32,000 bases of DNA from Halomicronema hongdechloris C2206 (GCF_002075285.3 NZ_CP021983.2:1950001-1982000), one strand, 5' to 3'. Positions 1-7,227 are shown, counted from the first letter of the stretch. Notes: generated by a model from the letters alone, not told the origin. Translations and numbers: made by a program.

Positions 1-1
1 C

Positions 2-691
2 GGTGCGGATTTCGAAATTGCTGTGCGAGATAGCCTGCAATATTTAGGCTTCAAAATTGAACTTTCTCACAGAGGGGGCGCAGGTGGTTTAGACTTAGCC
101 TGTTCCGAACCTTACGCTCTTATTGGTGAGTGCAAGTCTGGCAAGAGAATTCCCAACGACACCGCTGTTCAGCTTCTCAATCTCGGTACCTTAAGACTAA
201 CTGATAAAGAAACCTATAGGACTGCTGCTAAGTTAATTATTGGCCCTGGTGAACCCACATCTCAGCTAGAAAAAGCTGCAAAGGTACACGGTATGGCAAT
301 CATCAATCCGACAACTCTCGAAAATCTAGTACAACTTCATCACCAGCATCCAGGCTCCATTGATCTCTTGCAACTGAAAGAGTACCTAGCCGATGGTCGC
401 GCCGATGACGAGGTTGACAAGTATATTCAAAAAGTGAAAGCGCAGCTAGCATTACGCGCTTACATTGTTGACCAGATTCGACATTATTTGGAAGATGCTA
501 AAGCAGATGATGCCAATGTCGATTCCCTCCATGCCGTATATGTCGTCTCGAAGCGCGCTCCCTCTCTAAGTCGAGAAGAGTTCCATGAAATTTTGATCGA
601 GTTGTCTTCGCCGCTAGCAGGCTATCTTGGGCGCAGAAAAGACTCAGATGGCAAAGATCATTTTTATTTCCTGCGAGAGCTTCATGTCTAG
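2..691 (+). CDS. Mrr-like (PD-(D/E)xK) restriction endonuclease domain protein, 5' end outside the window
   Basis: The frame is open from the window edge (GADFEIAVRDSLQYLGF...). GGLDL...ALIGECKSGK fits the D...(D/E)xK core of Mrr_cat-type nucleases. About 150 aa of unassigned C-terminal domain follow. AT-richer than the core genes. Confidence 0.55.
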   Translation, partial: GADFEIAVRDSLQYLGFKIELSHRGGAGGLDLACSEPYALIGECKSGKRIPNDTAVQLLNLGTLRLTDKETYRTAAKLIIGPGEPTSQLEKAAKVHGMAIINPTTLENLVQLHHQHPGSIDLLQLKEYLADGRADDEVDKYIQKVKAQLALRAYIVDQIRHYLEDAKADDANVDSLHAVYVVSKRAPSLSREEFHEILIELSSPLAGYLGRRKDSDGKDHFYFLRELHV

Positions 692-704
692 TGAAACCTC
701 ATCC

Positions 705-1112
705 ATGATCACGGTTGCCATGACCAAAGGGCTAGGGTTGCTTCATTGGGTGAAGTGGCTGTCTCTGGTTTTTCTGGGGTTAATCATTGCAGGGCTGCTG
801 GTCAAGGAGCGGGCCAATGTGGGGAGTTTCTTTTTGCAGGTGGGGTGGATGATGTTGGCGTTGATGGTGCTCACCATGGCGTTGGGATATACGATCGCAA
901 CCCTGGCAAGCCTAGATAATCGCAGCGCGACGGCGATTACCATCGAAGTGGGCATCCACAATGGAACCTTAGCCATTGCGATCGCAAGTGCACCTGCCTT
1001 CCTCAACACACCAGCGATGGCGATTCCTGCCGCGATTTACTCGCTGCTGATGTTTGCCGTCAGTGGGGCATTTGCCTGGTGGGCTCAGCGGCAAGCGACC
1101 ATAAGCACCTAG
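705..1112 (+). pseudogene. C-terminal fragment of a bile acid:Na+ symporter (BASS/SBF-like) family transporter
   Basis: About 135 aa of hydrophobic helices (...SATAITIEVGIHNGTLAIAIA...AIPAAIYSLLMFAVSG...) resemble the last helices of BASS proteins, which are normally ~300 aa. The upstream part of the ORF overlaps the nuclease gene and is not transporter-like. GC-rich like the core genome and contains a HIP1 site at 978-985. Confidence 0.45.
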
Positions 1113-1250
1113 ACAATAGCATTGGCCAATCAACTGAGGACATGACCGATCGGTTCATGGTGCAGTCCAAGGGGTTCGAACAAAACAGCACCGCCGCCGC
1201 GCCGCATGCACTAAGAGCTGAGCTACTAGCTAGGGCCAAGTTCGGGAGCC

Positions 1251-1318
1251 GTTGAGGATGCGGACTGCATCCCAACAGTTAACTGCTCAGCAGGCTGTGT
1301 GCATGGGCATTGTTGGGC
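1251..1318 (-). other. Nested integron-core-like inverted heptamers (possible short or degenerate attC at the distal end of the cassette array)
   Basis: Read on the minus strand: GCCCAAC (1312-1318, fits RYYYAAC), then GTTGGGA (1270-1276, near GTTRRRY), then CCTCAAC (1251-1257). The last two form a 10-bp hairpin with one bulged T (GTTGGGATGC-AGTCC-GCATCCTCAAC). The element starts 36 nt after the methyltransferase stop. Confidence 0.3.
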
Positions 1319-1353
1319 GGTAAATCACCTAAGGTCGCAAACTTCCCACAAAA

Positions 1354-2157
1354 TCATGATTTTGTTGCTGTAATGATGTGAACTGGTACTCGAAACTCTA
1401 CTGCGCCGCTATCAGTCTGAAACGCCTCCAGCACAGTTTCAGCCTCTTCGACAACGGCTTCAATTGTATCCTCGTTTAGATGGATGCCCGCAAACGGGAA
1501 CCATCCCTTCACGTCCGCAAGCACCATATTCCTAACGCTTGAAAAGCGAGCCATGCCCTCCTCCATTCTGATTGCCGCGGAAGTAATCCCTGCACTAGCG
1601 AACACCGATGCAAGTGTGTCCGGATCACCCATCGAGAAGGGCATACGAAGCGCATCGCCTACCGCCTTACCGACCTGGTGCTCGTAAACATTAGCGATAG
1701 CACCATAGGCGGGCAAATCTTCCAGAGAGCCAAACACCGCTACTGCCAAATGACCACCGGGCTTTAGTACGCGCCTCATTTCTTGTAGGGCGATTATGGG
1801 GGCTGCAAAGAGCATCAACCCGAACTGGCTAAGGACGGCATCAAAGCTGTCGTTTGCATAAAGCAACGATTCAGCGTCTCCTTCACGCCACTCAACCGCT
1901 GGGGCGATGCGGTTCGCGACGGCTAGCATACCCGGATTAACATCCACCCCCGACACCGATCCATTACGACCAACCCGCTCGGCAACGACTCGTGCCAGCA
2001 CTCCGGTGCCACACGCAACATCCAGGACGTGTTGGCCTTCCTGGATGTCGGCTGCATCCGCTAACCGAGGTGTCCATTCTGTGAACAAAGCTGGGGCGAG
2101 GAGTTGTTCATAAGCTTCAGCAACTTTCACAAGTTCTTGGATATTTAGTTCATTCAT
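1354..2157 (-). CDS. Class I SAM-dependent methyltransferase (Methyltransf_11/UbiE-like), cassette-like gene
   Basis: 267-aa ORF with motif I VLDVACGTGVLA, an acidic loop GVDVNPGML and post-I/II motifs. A GGAGGAG Shine-Dalgarno lies 8-9 nt upstream. The start is only 20 nt downstream of the attC R' site. Confidence 0.85.
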   Translation of the reverse strand: MNELNIQELVKVAEAYEQLLAPALFTEWTPRLADAADIQEGQHVLDVACGTGVLARVVAERVGRNGSVSGVDVNPGMLAVANRIAPAVEWREGDAESLLYANDSFDAVLSQFGLMLFAAPIIALQEMRRVLKPGGHLAVAVFGSLEDLPAYGAIANVYEHQVGKAVGDALRMPFSMGDPDTLASVFASAGITSAAIRMEEGMARFSSVRNMVLADVKGWFPFAGIHLNEDTIEAVVEEAETVLEAFQTDSGAVEFRVPVHIITATKS

Positions 2158-2177
2158 CTTAGGTCTCCTCCATTGCC

Positions 2178-2264
2178 GCCCAACGTTCCGGTTGAGCGGC
2201 TGCTAGTAGCCTACGCAGCATGACCAAGATCTCTTATCAGTCCGCTCCAACCGGGTTGTTAGAC
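2178..2264 (-). other. Integron attC recombination site (87 bp)
   Basis: Minus strand reads R'' GTCTAAC - aac - L'' CCGGTTG[G]AGCGG - 49-nt loop - L' CCGCTCAACCGG - aac - R' GTTGGGC. R'' fits RYYYAAC and R' fits GTTRRRY exactly. The L arms pair over 12 bp with one extrahelical G in L''. The site lies between the stop of one minus-strand gene and the start of the next. Confidence 0.65.
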
Positions 2265-2307
2265 ATGCACGACCGATCACTTTCAATTAGCAATCCTGTC
2301 TTTATGC

Positions 2308-2730
2308 TTACTCACCCTGCTTGAGACGGACTTCAAATTCAGAACGCGCACGGAAAAAACAAACATCAAACTCAAAAAAGAAATTAGCTTGACCCAAAAT
2401 TAAAGGCACATTAGGTGCTTGCGTCCAGGCAAATGCAAGATCAACAGTGTGAAAAGAACTGACTTGTGCGGCAATAACCACTGCACGAGCTTCAAATCGA
2501 GCCAGATTTCCTGCTAATAGAACCGAGAGTGTTTCATTCTCCCAGATTAAACCCAGTTGCGTTCCCAACTCGTACGGGAGAACATTTACGCTAGCGCCTG
2601 TATCCAATAAACCCTCGACGTTCAAGGATTGACCATTGAAGTCGAGAGTCAAAGGCAGGTATGGCATTCGATCAACCATGCCAAGGTTGCTGTCGATGAT
2701 CTTATAAGAAAATCTTTGAGCGTCAACCAT
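2308..2730 (-). CDS. Stand-alone retropepsin-like aspartic protease (single DTGA lobe)
   Basis: 140-aa ORF with LLDTGASVNVLP (a D-T-G-A active-site signature) at the position expected for retropepsin-like bacterial proteases. Its start overlaps the upstream gene's stop (ATGGTTGA). Confidence 0.75.
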   Translation of the reverse strand: MVDAQRFSYKIIDSNLGMVDRMPYLPLTLDFNGQSLNVEGLLDTGASVNVLPYELGTQLGLIWENETLSVLLAGNLARFEARAVVIAAQVSSFHTVDLAFAWTQAPNVPLILGQANFFFEFDVCFFRARSEFEVRLKQGE

Positions 2731-2941
2731 TCTTCTCTTGCTGCTTCGTTGCCAGAAGCTTCATCAAAGTATTAGCAGCGTCAGAACAATTGTACGGCGA
2801 CCAAACTGGATACTCTTGGTTCGCAACAAAGAAATTTGCGTCTTCTTCCCTAACTAGCTCTGTAGCAAGGAACTGCATTAGCCGAAGTTTGTCAATTTTT
2901 GGAAGTTCCTGGATTTGTGACATCAGTTCAGCTAATGGCAT
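2723..2941 (-). CDS. Small helical protein (antitoxin/addiction-module-component-like), translationally coupled to the aspartic protease
   Basis: 72-aa ORF with a GAGGAG Shine-Dalgarno 8 nt upstream. The N-terminal LMSQIQELPKIDKLRLMQFL pattern resembles small putative addiction-module components. There is an 8-nt overlap with the downstream gene. Confidence 0.55.
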   Translation of the reverse strand: MPLAELMSQIQELPKIDKLRLMQFLATELVREEDANFFVANQEYPVWSPYNCSDAANTLMKLLATKQQEKNG

Positions 2942-3134
2942 TTGAGAATCTCCTCGTCTGAGGCTTGGTGAAACGAAGCTATTATGTTTATCATTTTAAC
3001 CTGGCGATCGCATCCACGATTACGGCTTGAAGTGAGATTGCACCTCTAGCCTAGTCAAGCGATGCAGGTTTCCTATTGTCAACCCAGCCTACGACGATAG
3101 GCGATCACTTTTTTCCTACGTTAGAGGAATGAGT

Positions 3135-3836
3135 CTACGGGGGAATAGCTTTGAAGCTAGTCGGTAAGTCTGAGTTAGGAAGGTTGCTTATGACATCACC
3201 GGAGGCTTGTTCCTGAAAGAGGCGCTGGTCTTGAGTACTGTAAATTTCTAAAATGCCCATGCCCATGCTGTTAATGCGAACAAAATACTGCACTGGTATG
3301 CCATTTTTTTCTCCATAAGCGACATAGCTGACAGCTTGCTCATACGGTTCTTCAGCTGGTACAAAAGTAGCAGCAGCCCCATTCAATTCCTGTCCATTTA
3401 TAAGTTTATTGAACGCGTTCATGGCGAGCCGATTGCCTGATTCAAAAACTCTGACTCCATAACTAGGAGTTTCAAATGCAAGTCGAGTAACGGTTATGGG
3501 AGAGATTGAGCTCTGAGCTGGTAAAGTTCGCAACTTTTCTAGGCTTTCTGCGTTTTTGTCCAAACTTTCTGTGTCTAAGACTTTGACAGCTCCAATCTCA
3601 GTCAAAAATCTTAATTGTTCGGTAGCGTCTTCGTTTGAAATGTCTTTGTTAGACAAAATGTCTGAGATAAGAGAGTACTCATATTTTAGCCTTTCAAGAG
3701 TTAGTGCTGTATGCCCCTCAAGACCCTGTCCAATCACTGAGCCCAGAAAAGTGAAAAATCCTGCTGCTCCCAATAATCCAATCCATCTCTCAGAATGCGT
3801 TTTGTTTTGTCTAAGCGGCTCTTCTATCTTTGTCAT
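3135..3836 (-). CDS. Hypothetical protein with one N-terminal transmembrane helix (orphan cassette-like gene)
   Basis: 233-aa ORF. It has a TM segment WIGLLGAAGFFTFLGSVIG, then a charged helical region and a C-terminal domain with no motif I recognise. AT-rich, with no obvious Shine-Dalgarno. Confidence 0.55.
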   Translation of the reverse strand: MTKIEEPLRQNKTHSERWIGLLGAAGFFTFLGSVIGQGLEGHTALTLERLKYEYSLISDILSNKDISNEDATEQLRFLTEIGAVKVLDTESLDKNAESLEKLRTLPAQSSISPITVTRLAFETPSYGVRVFESGNRLAMNAFNKLINGQELNGAAATFVPAEEPYEQAVSYVAYGEKNGIPVQYFVRINSMGMGILEIYSTQDQRLFQEQASGDVISNLPNSDLPTSFKAIPP

Positions 3837-3938
3837 AGTTATAAGGGTTTAGCGTTACAGCACCACAGAGTGGGCTCTTTAAGGAAGTTTGGATGAGGAA
3901 AAGCTTGACTAGCTACTGAGGCGCTTCAAAACTAATCT

Positions 3939-4705
3939 GTCGGGTAAAGGAGGAAGTTTTAGATATGGCTTCCTCCCTCCCCTCAGAACCGTGCATACGA
4001 CTTTCACCGTACCCGGCTCAAGCAATGTCTTGAGATTCAGTGTCTCCGATTCTTAACAACCCTTACGAGTTGTCCTGACGGTTACGTTTGCAAACCGGAG
4101 CTTGCACCTAACTTTTCCCAATCAGTTAAGTCTCATCTCACCTTCAGTCAAGACCATCACCTGTCCCACGTCAGCACCCTTTCGGGTTAGGTATTGCCCT
4201 ATCTGCCCCGTTATGGTTTCCGGTTGCCTTTCGGCTGGCAGCATTCGCGTCTTGGGACATCCTGTGCCCGCTAAAGAATTCAGCTTTGGTTGCCCATCGC
4301 TTACCCGATTTTGAAGGCAAAATCAGGACTCTATCGGGGTTTCCTCGTTCCGCACGGGGTGGAGATGCGGTTGCCTTAGGACTCCTCTCTACTCCGGGGG
4401 CGGGGTGTTCTTAGTTGGCGTTTAGACGCCGCCAACCCCCATGTGCCCCAACATGCTCGTGTCAGCCCTTTCGAGCACTACGATTAACGAAGCCTCATCA
4501 AGGATTCATTTGCATTATCCCTAGCAACCTTGCCCTAGCCTGCACCCTCGATTTGGCTCCAAAGGTGCTTCAACACTTAACCTCATCTGCTGATGCTGCC
4601 CTCCCATTACTGGTTGAACATTCTGAGGCGGACATCCGCTTGAACACTAGCGGGGAAAGGCGTTTAAGAGCCTCTCCAACTCCCCCGAACGACTTCGAGT
4701 CGCGC
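3939..4705 (-). mobile_element. ORF-less group II intron (767 nt)
   Basis: Minus strand. Domain V lies at 3986-4019 (GAGCCGGGUACGGUGAAAGUCGUAUGCACGGUUC: AGC triad, 2-nt bulge, GAAA loop). Domain VI has an 8-bp helix GGAGGAAG/CUUCCUCC and a bulged A 7 nt from a ...CCCGAC 3' end. The 5' end reads GCGCGAC. An EBS1-like loop GUCUAA (4422-4427) complements the last six 5'-exon bases. There is no reverse-transcriptase ORF. Confidence 0.85.
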
Positions 4706-4989
4706 GTCTAACTTGTAATTCATCAGCATTACCTCCTTCGAAGCGGTCTAATCCACCTCTGCAGAGGTATTATCTACCATTCGTGCTAGATAACACCCCT
4801 CGGGGGAGATATAGTCTGCAGGAAACCGGTCTAATCACCCTGCTGGGAGTTTTATCCATCATCAATGCAATCTAATTCCCCTAAATCAGGGGATTGGGCG
4901 ACTAGAAAGCTCGATAAGATCCCAATCATAGGTGTTATCCAGCACTTGACGCGGATAATAGCCTTGAAACGGTGAGTTATCCGGCTAAC
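4706..4989 (-). promoter_or_regulatory. Candidate attI-like region: GTTAGAC core plus upstream direct repeats of (A/G)TTAG(A/C)(C/T)
   Basis: Minus-strand heptamers: GTTAGAC (4706-4712), ATTAGAC (4746-4752), ATTAGAC (4829-4835), ATTAGAT (4870-4876) and GTTAGCC (4983-4989). The two ATTAGAC copies sit in a longer repeat, GGTG(G)ATTAGACCG. The region lies between the intI-like start and the first cassette-like gene. Confidence 0.3.
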
Positions 4990-5074
4990 TTCAGCAAAAC
5001 TTTATTTAGAGTAAGAGCATATTTCAGTGTAATATTTAGCACATTAGTTCTACTTATGTGTCTGCTACTCGCCT

Positions 5075-5580
5075 ATGGACCCCCAACCTAGGAAGCTGCT
5101 CGACCAGGTTCGAGATGCTATTCGGCTTAAACATTATTCCTATAAAACTGAGCAGACCTATGTCGGCTGGATTCATCGCTATACCCTTTTCCACAACAAG
5201 CAGCATCCCAAGGAAATGGGTAGTGCTGAGATTGAGGCATTCTTGACTCATCTCACCGTTGAAAAGCAGGTGTTAGCCTCTACTCAAAATCAGGCATTCA
5301 GTGCTCTGCTGTTTTTATACCGCCAGGTCTTGAATCAAGACCTAGGCAGCTCTATCAATGCCGTTCGCGCTAGGCCATCCCGGTATTTGCCAACGGTACT
5401 CATCAAAGCTGAGGTGAGATCAATACTCAGCCGGGTGACCAAGAGTCCCAGCCTCGTGATTCAGATACTCTACGGTAGTGGCTTACGGCTCAACGAAGGT
5501 CTACGGTTGCGCGTAAAGGATTTGGATTTTGCTCAGCGTCACGTTATTGTCCGTGATGCAAAAGGCAACGAAAGTCGATC
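5075..5580 (+). pseudogene. intI: Integron-type tyrosine recombinase (IntI-like), N-terminal ~168 aa only
   Basis: LLDQVRDAIRLKHYSYKTEQTYVGWIHRY..., ASTQNQAFSALLFLYRQVL, RPSRYLPTVL and LYGSGLRLNEGLRLRVKDLDFAQRHVIVRDAKG match the conserved IntI blocks as I recall them from IntI1. Similarity stops near 5580. The HxxR, IntI-specific patch and catalytic Tyr regions are absent. Confidence 0.75.
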
Positions 5581-5651
5581 AGGATTAAACTCCCATGAAT
5601 GCAACCGCCAGTCATCGCTGATATCTAGAGCCTCACGGTCGAGACTCCAGC

Positions 5652-5713
5652 CAGTCACCATTGACACTCTGGCAGTCACCACTGACACTCTGGCAGTCAC
5701 CACTGATACCTGG
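5652..5713 (+). repeat. Three tandem ~21-bp repeats (CAGTCACCAYTGACACTCTGG) with a degenerate fourth unit
   Basis: Units lie at 5652-5672, 5673-5693 and 5694-5713, read directly. They sit in the non-homologous tail that follows the integrase fragment. Confidence 0.9.
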
Positions 5714-5769
5714 AGGCTCACCAGTGAGATGGCAAGCCGATTGACTGACGTAAATCTAATAGGTGATGG

Positions 5770-6186
5770 CTAATCCATGGCGTCCAGCAAACCCTGTTGC
5801 TGCATGACACTGAGCAGCCAGTTGGCCATGGTGGCCCGACGGGTGAGGCGAGGGATCAACTGGTCCACGCTGTAGCCCTTGAACCCCAGGTAGGTTTTCA
5901 GCAGTTGTTTATTGTCTTTGGGAATGGAGCGGGTAAGCTTCACAGTGGCCGGACGGCTCTCGATGAAATGGGGCGGGATGGGATAAGCTTCCGCCCAGGT
6001 CGGCTCGACCATGTCAGTTTGCCATGCATCGTTGGCAGGGTCGTAGCGATAGCCGAGATGATGCCATACCAAACGGTTCACGGTGTCATCATCGAGGGTG
6101 TCGTTAAGAATTGCCCAAATGGTGTCAGTCGTCAGCGCTGGCAAGGCATCCATGGCGTTGGAGGTGGCAATAGGCGTAGGATTCAC
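5770..6186 (-). CDS. Conserved cyanobacterial hypothetical protein (possibly DUF1823-like)
   Basis: 138-aa ORF with core-like GC content. The sequence (...VNRLVWHHLGYRYDP...WAEAYPIPPHFIESRPATVKLTRSIP...) looks like a conserved small cyanobacterial/plastid-lineage protein. The family name is from memory only. Confidence 0.6.
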   Translation of the reverse strand: MNPTPIATSNAMDALPALTTDTIWAILNDTLDDDTVNRLVWHHLGYRYDPANDAWQTDMVEPTWAEAYPIPPHFIESRPATVKLTRSIPKDNKQLLKTYLGFKGYSVDQLIPRLTRRATMANWLLSVMQQQGLLDAMD

Positions 6187-6457
6187 TGACAGCCATGGTA
6201 TCCTCTGCCAGGTTCTCTCTCCAACTTGATTTCCGCTAGCTACCCCGTGATCTGACGCACATCACCGGTCCTTCAGGATCACGAGGATTCGTAGCCCCCA
6301 TCACGGGGACATAGCGCCAGAATCACGAAGATGTCGCGACAGATATCACCCCTGCCTAGGAAAAAACTACGCATAATGCAGTCATATCTGAGCAGCCAAT
6401 AATTTATTCCTCTAAACGCGTTTCCTGCTTTCCTCCGACGACAACTGCACACTTAAG

Positions 6458-6482
6458 CCCCGGCCTTAGGGTCGGGGTTTTT
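6458..6482 (+). terminator. Rho-independent terminator with no annotated upstream plus-strand gene
   Basis: Stem CCCCGGCC / GGTCGGGG (8 bp, one G-U pair), loop TTAG, followed by TTTTT. Confidence 0.5.
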
Positions 6483-6570
6483 ATGACGTCAGGCTATCAA
6501 GACCATCAGAACACCTGTAGAAGGGCAATGTTGCCTGATATAACGCCTACAAGCCTTGATATGCCCTAGG

Positions 6571-6599
6571 TTGCTTTTCCCCCATCGCTCTGCTACTCT
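6571..6599 (+). promoter_or_regulatory. Putative sigma70-type promoter of the tetR gene
   Basis: TTGCTT (6571-6576), a 17-nt spacer, then TACTCT (6594-6599). The predicted transcription start falls on the palindromic operator. Confidence 0.3.
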
Positions 6600-6604
6600 C
6601 GAAG

Positions 6605-6618
6605 AGACCGATCGGTCT
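6605..6618. promoter_or_regulatory. 14-bp perfect palindrome AGACCGATCGGTCT (candidate TetR operator 1)
   Basis: Perfect palindrome 13 nt upstream of the tetR ATG. An identical copy lies at 7264-7277. Confidence 0.55.
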
Positions 6619-6630
6619 TAAGTGTTGACC

Positions 6631-7227
6631 ATGGCTAAAGCCGACCTCACCCGTGCCCGTATCATTCAGCGGGCTGCCAACTTGTTTAACCTGCAAGGCT
6701 ATGCCGGTTCGTCTATGGCCGACATCATGCAGGCGACTGGGTTAAAGAAGGGCGGCATTTACAACCACTTTGCCAGCAAAGATGACTTAGCCTTGGCCGC
6801 CTTTGACTTTGCGGTGCAGCAGGTGAGTCAACGCTATCGAGAGGCCCTGCAGGACACCCCTGGTGCCATTGCTGGCCTTAAGGTGATCGTGGGGACCTTC
6901 TGCACCGCCCCGGATCAGGTGCCCTTGCAGGGGGGCTGCCCCTTGCTCAATACAGCCATCGAGAGTGATGACACCCACTCAGGCTTGCGGGAGAAAGCCC
7001 AAGGGGCCATGGGTGAGTGGCGGCGATTGATTCGGCGGCTAGTACAGCAGGGGTTGAAGGCGGGAGAACTGCGACCGGCAGTAGACCCTGATACGGTGGC
7101 TACGATTGTCATTTCCACGTTGGAAGGGGCCTTGATGATGACGAAACTCTATGGCGATCGCGTCCACCTGGAACGAGGCCAGGCCCACCTGGAGCACTAC
7201 ATCGACGACTTACGGGCCAGCCCTTGA
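6631..7227 (+). CDS. TetR/AcrR family transcriptional regulator
   Basis: N-terminal HTH RIIQRAANLFNLQGYAGSSMADIMQATGLKKGGIYNHFASKDDL. The ATG at 6631 is preferred over the GTG at 6622. Confidence 0.85.
   Translation: MAKADLTRARIIQRAANLFNLQGYAGSSMADIMQATGLKKGGIYNHFASKDDLALAAFDFAVQQVSQRYREALQDTPGAIAGLKVIVGTFCTAPDQVPLQGGCPLLNTAIESDDTHSGLREKAQGAMGEWRRLIRRLVQQGLKAGELRPAVDPDTVATIVISTLEGALMMTKLYGDRVHLERGQAHLEHYIDDLRASP

Follow-up and report, generated by a model that had tools for sequence, protein, structure and literature searches.

How integron gene cassettes originate has long been debated, and the principal agents proposed so far are group II introns located at attC sites. Earlier evidence on introns in cassette genesis comes from the IIC-attC introns, which lie on the opposite strand, and from one intron of class IIB. 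S.ma.I2 and the other IIC-attC introns enter the bottom strand, antisense to the cassettes, at TTGT/T in the R'' box (PMC7923331; PMC3001079); they belong to class IIC, with a short pairing at exon-binding site 1 (EBS1) and a hairpin in place of intron-binding site 2 (IBS2) (PMC7923331). The IIB case, UHB.I2, is a lone IIB1/CL1 intron that closely follows an attC on a soda-lake metagenome contig; it contains an open reading frame (ORF) and has the boundaries UUGCG..GU, and its authors saw no conserved sequence in the flanking exons (PMC7923331). Among cyanobacteria, the IIB introns of Thermosynechococcus elongatus (T.el4h) include both ORF-containing and ORF-less members, the latter mobilized in trans (PMC2882425). 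Decayed chromosomal integrons are well known, as are CALINs, a category set apart from complete integrons as at least two attCs without a functional intI nearby (PMC4889954). Here we describe a 32,000-nt stretch of the genome of Halomicronema hongdechloris C2206 (the window; coordinates are counted from its first letter, and L-numbers denote fetched related loci or contigs). Taken as a whole, the locus is best explained as a fossil chromosomal integron in which a group II intron has inserted after the core of a putative attI, and we hold this explanation to be very probably correct. The integron remnant is of a known kind, and alone it would be an ordinary example of chromosomal integron erosion, of modest interest; what is new is the intron family, which differs from known integron introns in class, strand, insertion point, occupancy of attI and the scarcity of ORFs among its members.

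Like the IIC-attC introns, the window family appears to be a group II lineage specialized on integron sites, found at many different attCs and leaving coding sequence uninterrupted. Unlike them, it lies on the top strand in sense orientation, with R' or the attI core (GTTAKNY|) as its immediate upstream neighbor; it also occurs at attI and is mostly ORF-less, and its ORF-bearing members encode an HNH protein nearest to that of the IIB intron T.el4h. It resembles UHB.I2 in its probable IIB type, in its sense orientation and in its position immediately after attC. Judged by the published description of UHB.I2, the window family is set apart by its roughly 47 contexts, by a conserved 5' exon heptamer that is the integron core and matches EBS1, by its occupancy of attI and by the predominance of 765-nt ORF-less copies. 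As in T. elongatus, a cyanobacterial family of IIB type mixes ORF-containing and ORF-less members, and the closest solved protein is 6ME0 (416 bits); the T. elongatus introns, however, are not reported at integron sites, and the window ribozyme starts with GCGCG. The integron itself resembles sedentary chromosomal integrons with an inactivated intI, in that intI and array diverge and an intI pseudogene lies beside leftover attCs. As in known integrons, the attC has R and L boxes, an unpaired spacer and extrahelical bases, and the cassette genes are promoterless and unrelated, with a two-gene toxin-antitoxin-like module among them; as in known integron hosts, a second, intact IntI is encoded elsewhere in the genome. 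The attC departs from the usual form in its extrahelical pattern (T-N6-C) and in a spacer of 3 nt per arm instead of 5-6 (PMC5027507), and the locus departs from known decayed integrons in the intron at attI. In the literature searched, no paper brought integron integrase, attC and group II intron together with cyanobacteria, and none connected Halomicronema hongdechloris to integrons.

Leftwards from 5074 on the minus strand, the locus comprises a putative attI, the group II intron, a 233-residue ORF, a two-gene cassette with its attC and a methyltransferase cassette. An earlier annotation made without database searches (the sequence-only reading) had placed all genes left of intI down to 1354 on the opposite strand, in a compact block. 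The ORF map bears out the strand, all ORFs across 1354-3836 being on the minus strand, but not the compactness: 3837-5074 is a stretch of 1.24 kb without an ORF. This stretch, overlooked at the time, contains both the putative attI and the intron. The intron (3939..4705, minus strand; 767 nt, ORF-less) was delimited with Rfam family RF00029 and an alignment of copies; it begins directly after the attI core GTTAGAC, with the 5' end GCGCGACUCGAAG and the 3' end ..UUUACCCGAC. Domain V (AGC triad, GAAA loop) and domain VI (bulged A 7 nt from the 3' end), at 3939..4021 on the minus strand, match RF00029 with 55.6 bits against a gathering score of 40, the sole Rfam match in the window. Compensatory changes are present at 18 pairs of the intron, and the domain VI stem co-varies between the window copy and that in L051. 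At 4422..4427 (minus strand) a hairpin loop on the stem GUUGGCG/CGCCAAC exposes a candidate EBS1, GUCUAA, which pairs at six of six positions with UUAGAC in the 5' exon (IBS1); the loop, AGCGUCUAAA, is the same in each of the 23 sequences (about 15 distinct copies) that yielded the motif, and its stem co-varies. No intron ORF or reverse transcriptase (RT) homologue was found in the window and, because no RT-maturase gene is present there, this copy is non-autonomous.

The consensus for group II intron boundaries is 5' GUGYG ... AY 3'. We inferred the boundary of the present family from the alignment, from the variability of the heptamer upstream and from a head-to-tail pair of copies in L109. 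GTTAGNC was tried as the intron's own 5' end, given the resemblance of GUUAG to GUGYG, and was rejected: the heptamer varies where the next 26 or more nucleotides are constant, it is needed as the R' of model-called attCs, it ends attI in intron-free relatives, and it is missing in the head-to-tail copy of L109.

Copies 85% identical to the window intron were located by BLAST and nhmmer searches of the intI loci; one is complete (L051), one is cut in domain V (L009) and one is cut by the end of its contig (L034). All three start 150-230 nt upstream of an intact intI, after the core, and a 45-nt remnant in L016 lies behind an attC-like 3' half, within an array. Scanning metagenomes for the 26 nt at the 5' end of the intron added 54 contigs, which together with the genome loci provide 47 distinct 5' flanks. 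Every located copy begins with GCGCGACUCGAAG, and the window copy is no outlier among the ORF-less copies, which are mutually 83-93% identical. Tallied over the 47 flanks, the heptamer that precedes the intron reads G (42), T (46), T (46), A (44), G/T, N and C/T, i.e. GTTAKNY. At least 22 distinct copies adjoin, on the same strand, an attC called by our covariance model R1 (described below), while most of the remaining copies follow attI-like sequence, several of them beside an intact or decayed intI; no two distinct contexts share the sequence 3' of the intron. The family is almost confined to integron recombination sites, attI and attC alike, where it lies on the coding strand immediately 3' of the core. 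At the attCs that abut an intron R'' and R' co-vary only partially, as is to be expected because TTRRRY belongs to the next cassette. An ORF is present in domain IV in L109, L129 and L120; the L109 protein (565 residues; RVT_N, RT, maturase and HNH domains, an RT-X-HNH arrangement) is closest to the T.el4h group IIB protein (PDB 6ME0_C, 416 bits), and it is on this similarity that we tentatively assign the family to class IIB. In the plasmid collection nothing close turned up, the matches being only short stretches of core ribozyme in other group II introns.

We lean towards the view that cyanobacterial integrons host a dedicated, mostly non-autonomous lineage of IIB-type introns, which recognizes the GTTAGRC core on the coding strand and colonizes both attI and attC, and which would represent a second, independent specialization on integrons, on the opposite strand to the IIC-attC introns and in another class. 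Its members most likely reach their sites by retrohoming, in which EBS1 GUCUAA would pair with IBS1 UUAGAC and RT-maturase would be supplied in trans to the ORF-less copies. Because crossover takes place at G|TT, an intron in this position would spare both recombination sites and travel at the head of the downstream cassette. Lying on the sense strand, it would be transcribed from the cassette promoter and possibly spliced out. Several observations sit uneasily with this view. The intron begins with GCGCG, with C at position 2, in every copy and not with GUGYG, although its 3' AC fits the consensus; the intron contains no complement to exon positions -8 to -13, as expected of an EBS2/IBS2 pairing, and the bases there differ from target to target; 17 of the 47 flanks have a C at position -2 that mismatches EBS1; because of a G.A mismatch in the domain V stem the window copy may not splice; and some copies may have been dispersed by cassette shuffling instead of retrohoming.

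In its strong form, dispersal by shuffling would mean that the intron is not targeted to the core at all, and that IntI-mediated cassette movement scattered through the arrays the descendants of one ancestral insertion at attI, which had been passed on along with the platform. A new cassette entering at G|TT would push the TTAGNC-intron behind its attC, which would produce both contexts without new homing, and that many copies are truncated remnants is in keeping with such a history. The difference in 3' sequence from context to context, however, places the end of the mobile unit at the last base of the intron, as in retrohoming and unlike cassette recombination; the introns keep their 83-93% identity where the adjoining attI sequences are barely alignable and the IntI proteins are 66-74% identical; and the family has a conserved loop complementary to its target as well as RT-X-HNH members. 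We consider this account unlikely. If the intron lineage is indeed targeted to the core, a reverse-splicing and RT machine is placed exactly at the junction of attC and gene, where the position of the intron could affect cassette expression or help to join new genes to attC, that is, contribute to cassette genesis. A multicopy family with the integron core as its 5' exon is also a second natural system in which ideas on cassette genesis can be tested.

In L109 (35-2490 and 2691-6404) two intron copies lie head to tail, the 3' end of one abutting the 5' end of the other, which bears the 565-residue ORF; next comes a 1237-residue CHAT/TPR gene that also neighbors the retropepsin cassette array in L144. 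Many copies of the family are truncated, and many contigs (L081-L134) stop 40-120 nt into the intron. Many intI-bearing contigs of metagenome-assembled genomes (MAGs) stop 100-400 nt upstream of intI, and L001, L045 and L046 end inside the attI core (..AGTAGTT, ..GATCGTTA and ..CTAGTTA). Contig ends within the intron or at the attI core are expected because the intron is a multicopy repeat; it seems to break metagenome assemblies at attI, so that integron finders would under-report cyanobacterial arrays. In L104, L105/L133, L107 and L130, attI-like sequence plus intron is found beside a decayed intI (residues 1-33, residues 1-110 or an internal deletion); L103 and L127 have the same combination without any intI, and there a gene for a serine recombinase is no more than 600 nt away. 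It may be common for intI to be lost while attI and intron are kept.

The putative attI (4706..4882, minus strand) was recognized from direct repeats, an inverted repeat, a core and its position. The direct repeats, all with ATTAGA, are AGGGGAATTAGATTGCAT (4882..4865), AGGGTGATTAGACCGGTT (4841..4824) and AGGTGGATTAGACCGCTT (4758..4741), and a 17-nt inverted repeat lies at 4763-4800. The core is CAAGTTAGAC, of which GTTAGAC occupies 4712..4706, 363 nt upstream of the intI start. In intron-free relatives the intI-proximal region ends alike, in ..AATAGTTAGAC, GTTAGGC, GTTAGCC or GTTATGC. We read the region as an attI with a crossover core because of GTTAGAC, the repeats and the heptamer ending shared with the intron-free relatives. 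Two loci from one MAG (L007 and L008, Coleofasciculaceae SMAG_U16480) have near-identical intI-attI regions at identical coordinates, with a 156-nt attI-like segment that differs at few bases; as in Halomicronema, the genome may hold a pair of integron platforms.

The truncated integrase gene (delta-intI; 5075..5578, plus strand) encodes residues 1-168 of an IntI and was identified by a match to NCBIfam TIGR02249 and by identity to P0002, a full-length IntI of 321 residues encoded in the same genome. It forms the first part of a 232-residue ORF (5075-5773) that matches Pfam Phage_int_SAM_4 (E 3.9e-30), covers only positions 5-68 of the 172 in Phage_integrase (PF00589), and aligns with positions 1-162 of the 315 in TIGR02249, 'integron integrase', with 199.6 bits against a cut-off of 265; the XerC and XerD models give the same ORF about 45 bits. 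The product of this ORF, the DUF1823 protein and the retropepsin-like protein each have a 100% identical counterpart among the proteins of H. hongdechloris C2206. Delta-intI is identical to P0002 at 156 of 168 residues (93%), and the homology ends abruptly at residue 168 (nt ~5578), in agreement with the sequence-only reading, which had seen the N-terminal half of an IntI ending near 5580. The homology is not continued beyond the break in any other reading frame. The retained part covers the SAM-like domain at the N-terminus and reaches into the beginning of the catalytic domain; the catalytic half is absent, and with it both the insertion specific to IntI and the C-terminal catalytic residues. 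By comparison, P0002 matches positions 1-313 of the 315 in TIGR02249 with 481 bits, above the cut-off of 265, and contains the stretch specific to IntI, ALERKYP..W.WQFVFPS (motif ALERKYPYADRAWIWQFVFPS), which settles the earlier concern that full-length homologues might group with generic XerC/D recombinases. The TIGR02249 score, the identity to P0002 and the abrupt stop at residue 168 identify the window gene as a true intI without its catalytic half. Delta-intI is unable to recombine DNA, because everything after residue 168, including the catalytic residues, has been lost, and the window ORF lacks the combination of PF00589 and an IntI-specific C-terminal profile by which a complete integron is recognized.

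Beyond the break, the ORF continues for 64 codons of unrelated sequence (5579..5773, plus strand) and ends against the stop of the convergent DUF1823 gene. Inside this tail lies a 21-bp tandem repeat of 3.6 copies (5652-5727; consensus CAGTCACCACTGACACTCTGG), the in-frame translation of which gives TIDTLAV/TTDTLAV repeats. The open frame, together with an N-terminal DNA-binding domain that is well preserved (the 93% identity to P0002) and an attI and one attC that look intact, is what one would expect if the platform were still active, with the 232-residue product binding attI and attC as a regulator or partner and working with the intact IntI. We find this improbable, given that the C-terminal catalytic half is missing and the tail is unrelated, repeat-bearing sequence, that several of the 12 differences from P0002 in 168 residues are non-conservative, and that a decayed terminal attC and the lack of one cassette boundary would be expected in an unmaintained array. 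In the fossil integron that we favor, the surviving attI and attC would be possible substrates in trans for P0002.

The intact attC (2178..2264, minus strand; 87 nt) was identified by covariance model, folding and motif search. It consists of R'' GTCTAAC, spacer AAC, L'' CCGGTTG[G]AGCGG[A]CTG, the loop, L' CAGCCGCTCAACCGG, spacer AAC and R' GTTGGGC; the arms are 12 bp long with one bulged G, the spacers are 3 nt, and R'' and R' form seven pairs, two of them G.T. These elements are as given in the sequence-only reading, except that the loop between the 12-bp arms is 42 nt and not 49 nt (35 nt if a further A-bulge and the CTG/CAG pairs are counted with the stem). Nowhere else in the 32 kb do RYYYAAC and GTTRRRY enclose complementary arms, and the site folds better than 200 of 200 shuffled sequences (z = -3.8). 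Rfam holds no attC family, and we therefore built a covariance model, R1. For this purpose 80 loci encoding relatives of P0002 were fetched, in which a strict regular-expression search recovered only 1-3 attCs per locus; the clean ones, 13 sites upstream of an intact intI in other organisms, became the seeds from which a common structure was derived, the window sequence being excluded. R1 matches the window over its full length at 2264..2178 on the minus strand, with 42 bits (E 7e-9) against 15 bits on the plus strand, and this is its single match in 32 kb. The earlier proposal of an attC at this position and on this strand is upheld by the independent model, the fold and the motif search alike. 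With filters off over 1-7000, R1 gave no further attC and none between the 233-residue ORF and the gene pair; an R''-like CTCTAAC at 3123..3117, where no attC was called, is probably due to chance. Both halves of the site are near-identical to attCs in L128, L111, L146, L091 and L084, and they recur in unrelated metagenome contigs, for example as ..AACAACCCGGTTGGAGCGGACTG.. and ..GCAGCCGCTCAACCGGAACGTT... By sequence and predicted fold, the element at 2264..2178 is a genuine attC.

The bulged G on the coding (top) strand leaves an extrahelical C on the recombining bottom strand, and the second bulge is a bottom-strand T six base pairs away, which gives the pattern T-N6-C. The extrahelical base on the recombining strand is usually a G, in the pattern T-N6-G, and in the canonical top-strand geometry the bulge is on the AAC arm (PMC5027507). 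The window attC has this geometry, so that its description as a textbook site in the sequence-only reading holds for the geometry but not for the extrahelical pattern. A precedent for an extrahelical C exists in attCdfrA1 (PMC3053210). Among 51 distinct attCs from related loci (L008-L148) and the window, 37 have a top-strand G bulge, only two the canonical top-strand C, six no bulge and six another base. The T-N6-C pattern characterizes this clade of integrons, cyanobacterial and Chloroflexi-type; such a systematic departure from the attCs of class 1 and Vibrio integrons may have arisen through co-adaptation with the IntI proteins of the clade. Recombination of the top strand in this clade, which the G bulge had suggested, was ruled out by the position of the bulge on the AAC arm, the canonical top-strand geometry (PMC5027507).

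The body of the cassette upstream of this attC (2248..3106, minus strand) was delimited by its recurrence in L139-L148, to which the window is 82-92% identical in nucleotide sequence across 3106..2248. It contains a 72-residue ORF (2723-2941) that overlaps a 140-residue ORF (2308-2730) for a retropepsin-like protein (Asp_protease_2, E 1.3e-6), and the two form a strictly conserved overlapping two-gene module; by analogy, the layout of an antitoxin-like protein plus a protease suggests a module of the toxin-antitoxin type. The 140-residue protein has 2,264 homologues at E<=1e-10, the best 120 of which are 84-93% identical and come from several cyanobacterial orders. In eight loci among L140-L148 (about five distinct contexts) the pair is followed on its own strand, after 44-45 nt, by an R1-called attC; the spacing in the window is the same, and in L144 the pair is part of an array of four attCs. 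Because the same arrangement recurs within multi-attC arrays, the pair and its attC are a travelling integron cassette, whose presence in other arrays documents cassette exchange among Halomicronema and its relatives. In Symploca sp. SIO3E6 (L139, 3089-3834) the module is 91.6% identical in DNA to that of the window and has no attC after it, and so the module also exists outside cassette form; the occurrence of so similar a sequence in a different cyanobacterial order suggests recent horizontal transfer.

The last cassette (1354..2157, minus strand) encodes a class I S-adenosylmethionine (SAM)-dependent methyltransferase of 267 residues, UbiE/Methyltransf_25-like by its family matches. Its ATG lies 20 nt past the attC R' behind GGAGGAG, which confirms the earlier statement that the next gene has its own Shine-Dalgarno sequence at that distance. 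A decayed attC (1270..1318, minus strand) begins 36 nt past the methyltransferase stop and was recognized by R1 (8.6 bits, E 0.39) and by alignment with attCs of L119, L089, L093 and L016. Its first 22 nt (GCCCAAC AAT GCCCATGCACAC) match R''/L'' of the 'CCCATGCAC' attC family, L' is gone, and GTTGGGA follows 35 nt further on; with filters off it ranks third among the R1 matches in 7 kb, at the expected place and on the expected strand. Nearest to the intron, the 233-residue ORF (3135..3836, minus strand) has an N-terminal hydrophobic segment and no family match. It had been called an orphan membrane protein, to which the hydrophobic segment and lack of a family correspond, but it does have 68 homologues, all remote, among 1.84 billion representative proteins. 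It is made of two parts that are found apart elsewhere: residues ~17-111 in short proteins, and residues ~111-228 in proteins of ~370 residues, as two matched stretches, as if repeated there. The genes left of intI are functionally unrelated, as had been stated: a SAM methyltransferase, a retropepsin-like protein with its 72-residue partner and the 233-residue protein. A tblastn search of the 80 intI loci with the cassette proteins of the window found only generic methyltransferase and TetR similarity.

To the right of the integrase remnant, the DUF1823 gene (5770..6186, minus strand) is the first gene of a conserved core flank. The contig L136 of a relative is about 80% identical to the window in DNA over 5.8 kb and is collinear with it from 12360 down to 5789, with RND, MFP, GST, TetR and DUF1823 genes in common; beyond the equivalent of 5789 it runs into sbcC and DUF155, both absent from the window, and contains no integron there. 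Synteny stops where the intI remnant starts, and because gene order is shared with L136 only up to 5789, the integron block is not core sequence. Gene order conserved as core synteny, which had been named as grounds for abandoning the integron, is not what we observe in L136. The comparison of BASS and DUF1823 neighborhoods, also proposed earlier, located the right boundary at 5789, but a simple insertion between the two genes could not be shown. Because the break in intI coincides with the end of synteny, a deletion or rearrangement probably joined the integron to the DUF1823 flank.

Taken together, the integrase, the attC, the recurrent cassette and the non-core synteny support the earlier proposal of a chromosomal integron with an inactivated integrase; the attC lies 2.8 kb from intI, divergent from it and on the appropriate strand (42 bits with the surrogate R1). 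The term CALIN-like, used in that proposal, conveys that this is an integron remnant but is loose, because by the IntegronFinder definitions the locus, with one intact attC and one half site and hence fewer than two intact attCs, is neither a complete integron nor a clear CALIN (PMC4889954). The interpretation as a fossil integron has its weak points. R1 stands in for the attC model of IntegronFinder; only one attC is intact, so that the 'array' consists of one good site, one half site and the recurrence of a cassette elsewhere; 4706-4882 is a putative attI at which binding of IntI is deduced from position and repeats only; and the 233-residue ORF has no attC after it (R1, filters off, 1-7000) and no relative in the fetched integron loci (tblastn, 80 intI loci), so that it is either a cassette stripped of its boundary or no cassette at all. 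That there is no integron here, merely a generic XerC/D-like pseudogene beside an unrelated palindrome such as a terminator or REP-like repeat, is scarcely credible: the locus does have only one intact hairpin site, and a recombinase fragment without the IntI-specific region cannot be typed on that region alone, but the fragment scores 199.6 bits with TIGR02249 against ~45 with XerC/XerD and is 93% identical to P0002, and the palindrome scores 42 bits with R1 against 15 on the wrong strand, shares lineage-specific sequence with related attCs and recurs with the same gene pair inside attC arrays elsewhere.

The block had also been described as richer in AT than its flanks. This is true of 2200-4000 and 4800-5400, where GC is 42-48% against 56-65% to the right, but not of the methyltransferase (54-56%) or the intron (52-54%), neither of which is AT-rich, and the left flank (1-800, 45-47%) is equally low. 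In that flank only the C-terminal third of a BASS transporter gene remains (627..1112, plus strand; TIGR00841 positions 192-302 of 321). Its 5' end is overlapped by a 222-residue ORF (23-691, plus strand; 45% GC) with no Pfam or NCBIfam match; this low-GC ORF looks like a second insertion, which disrupts the BASS transporter gene and extends towards the start of the window.

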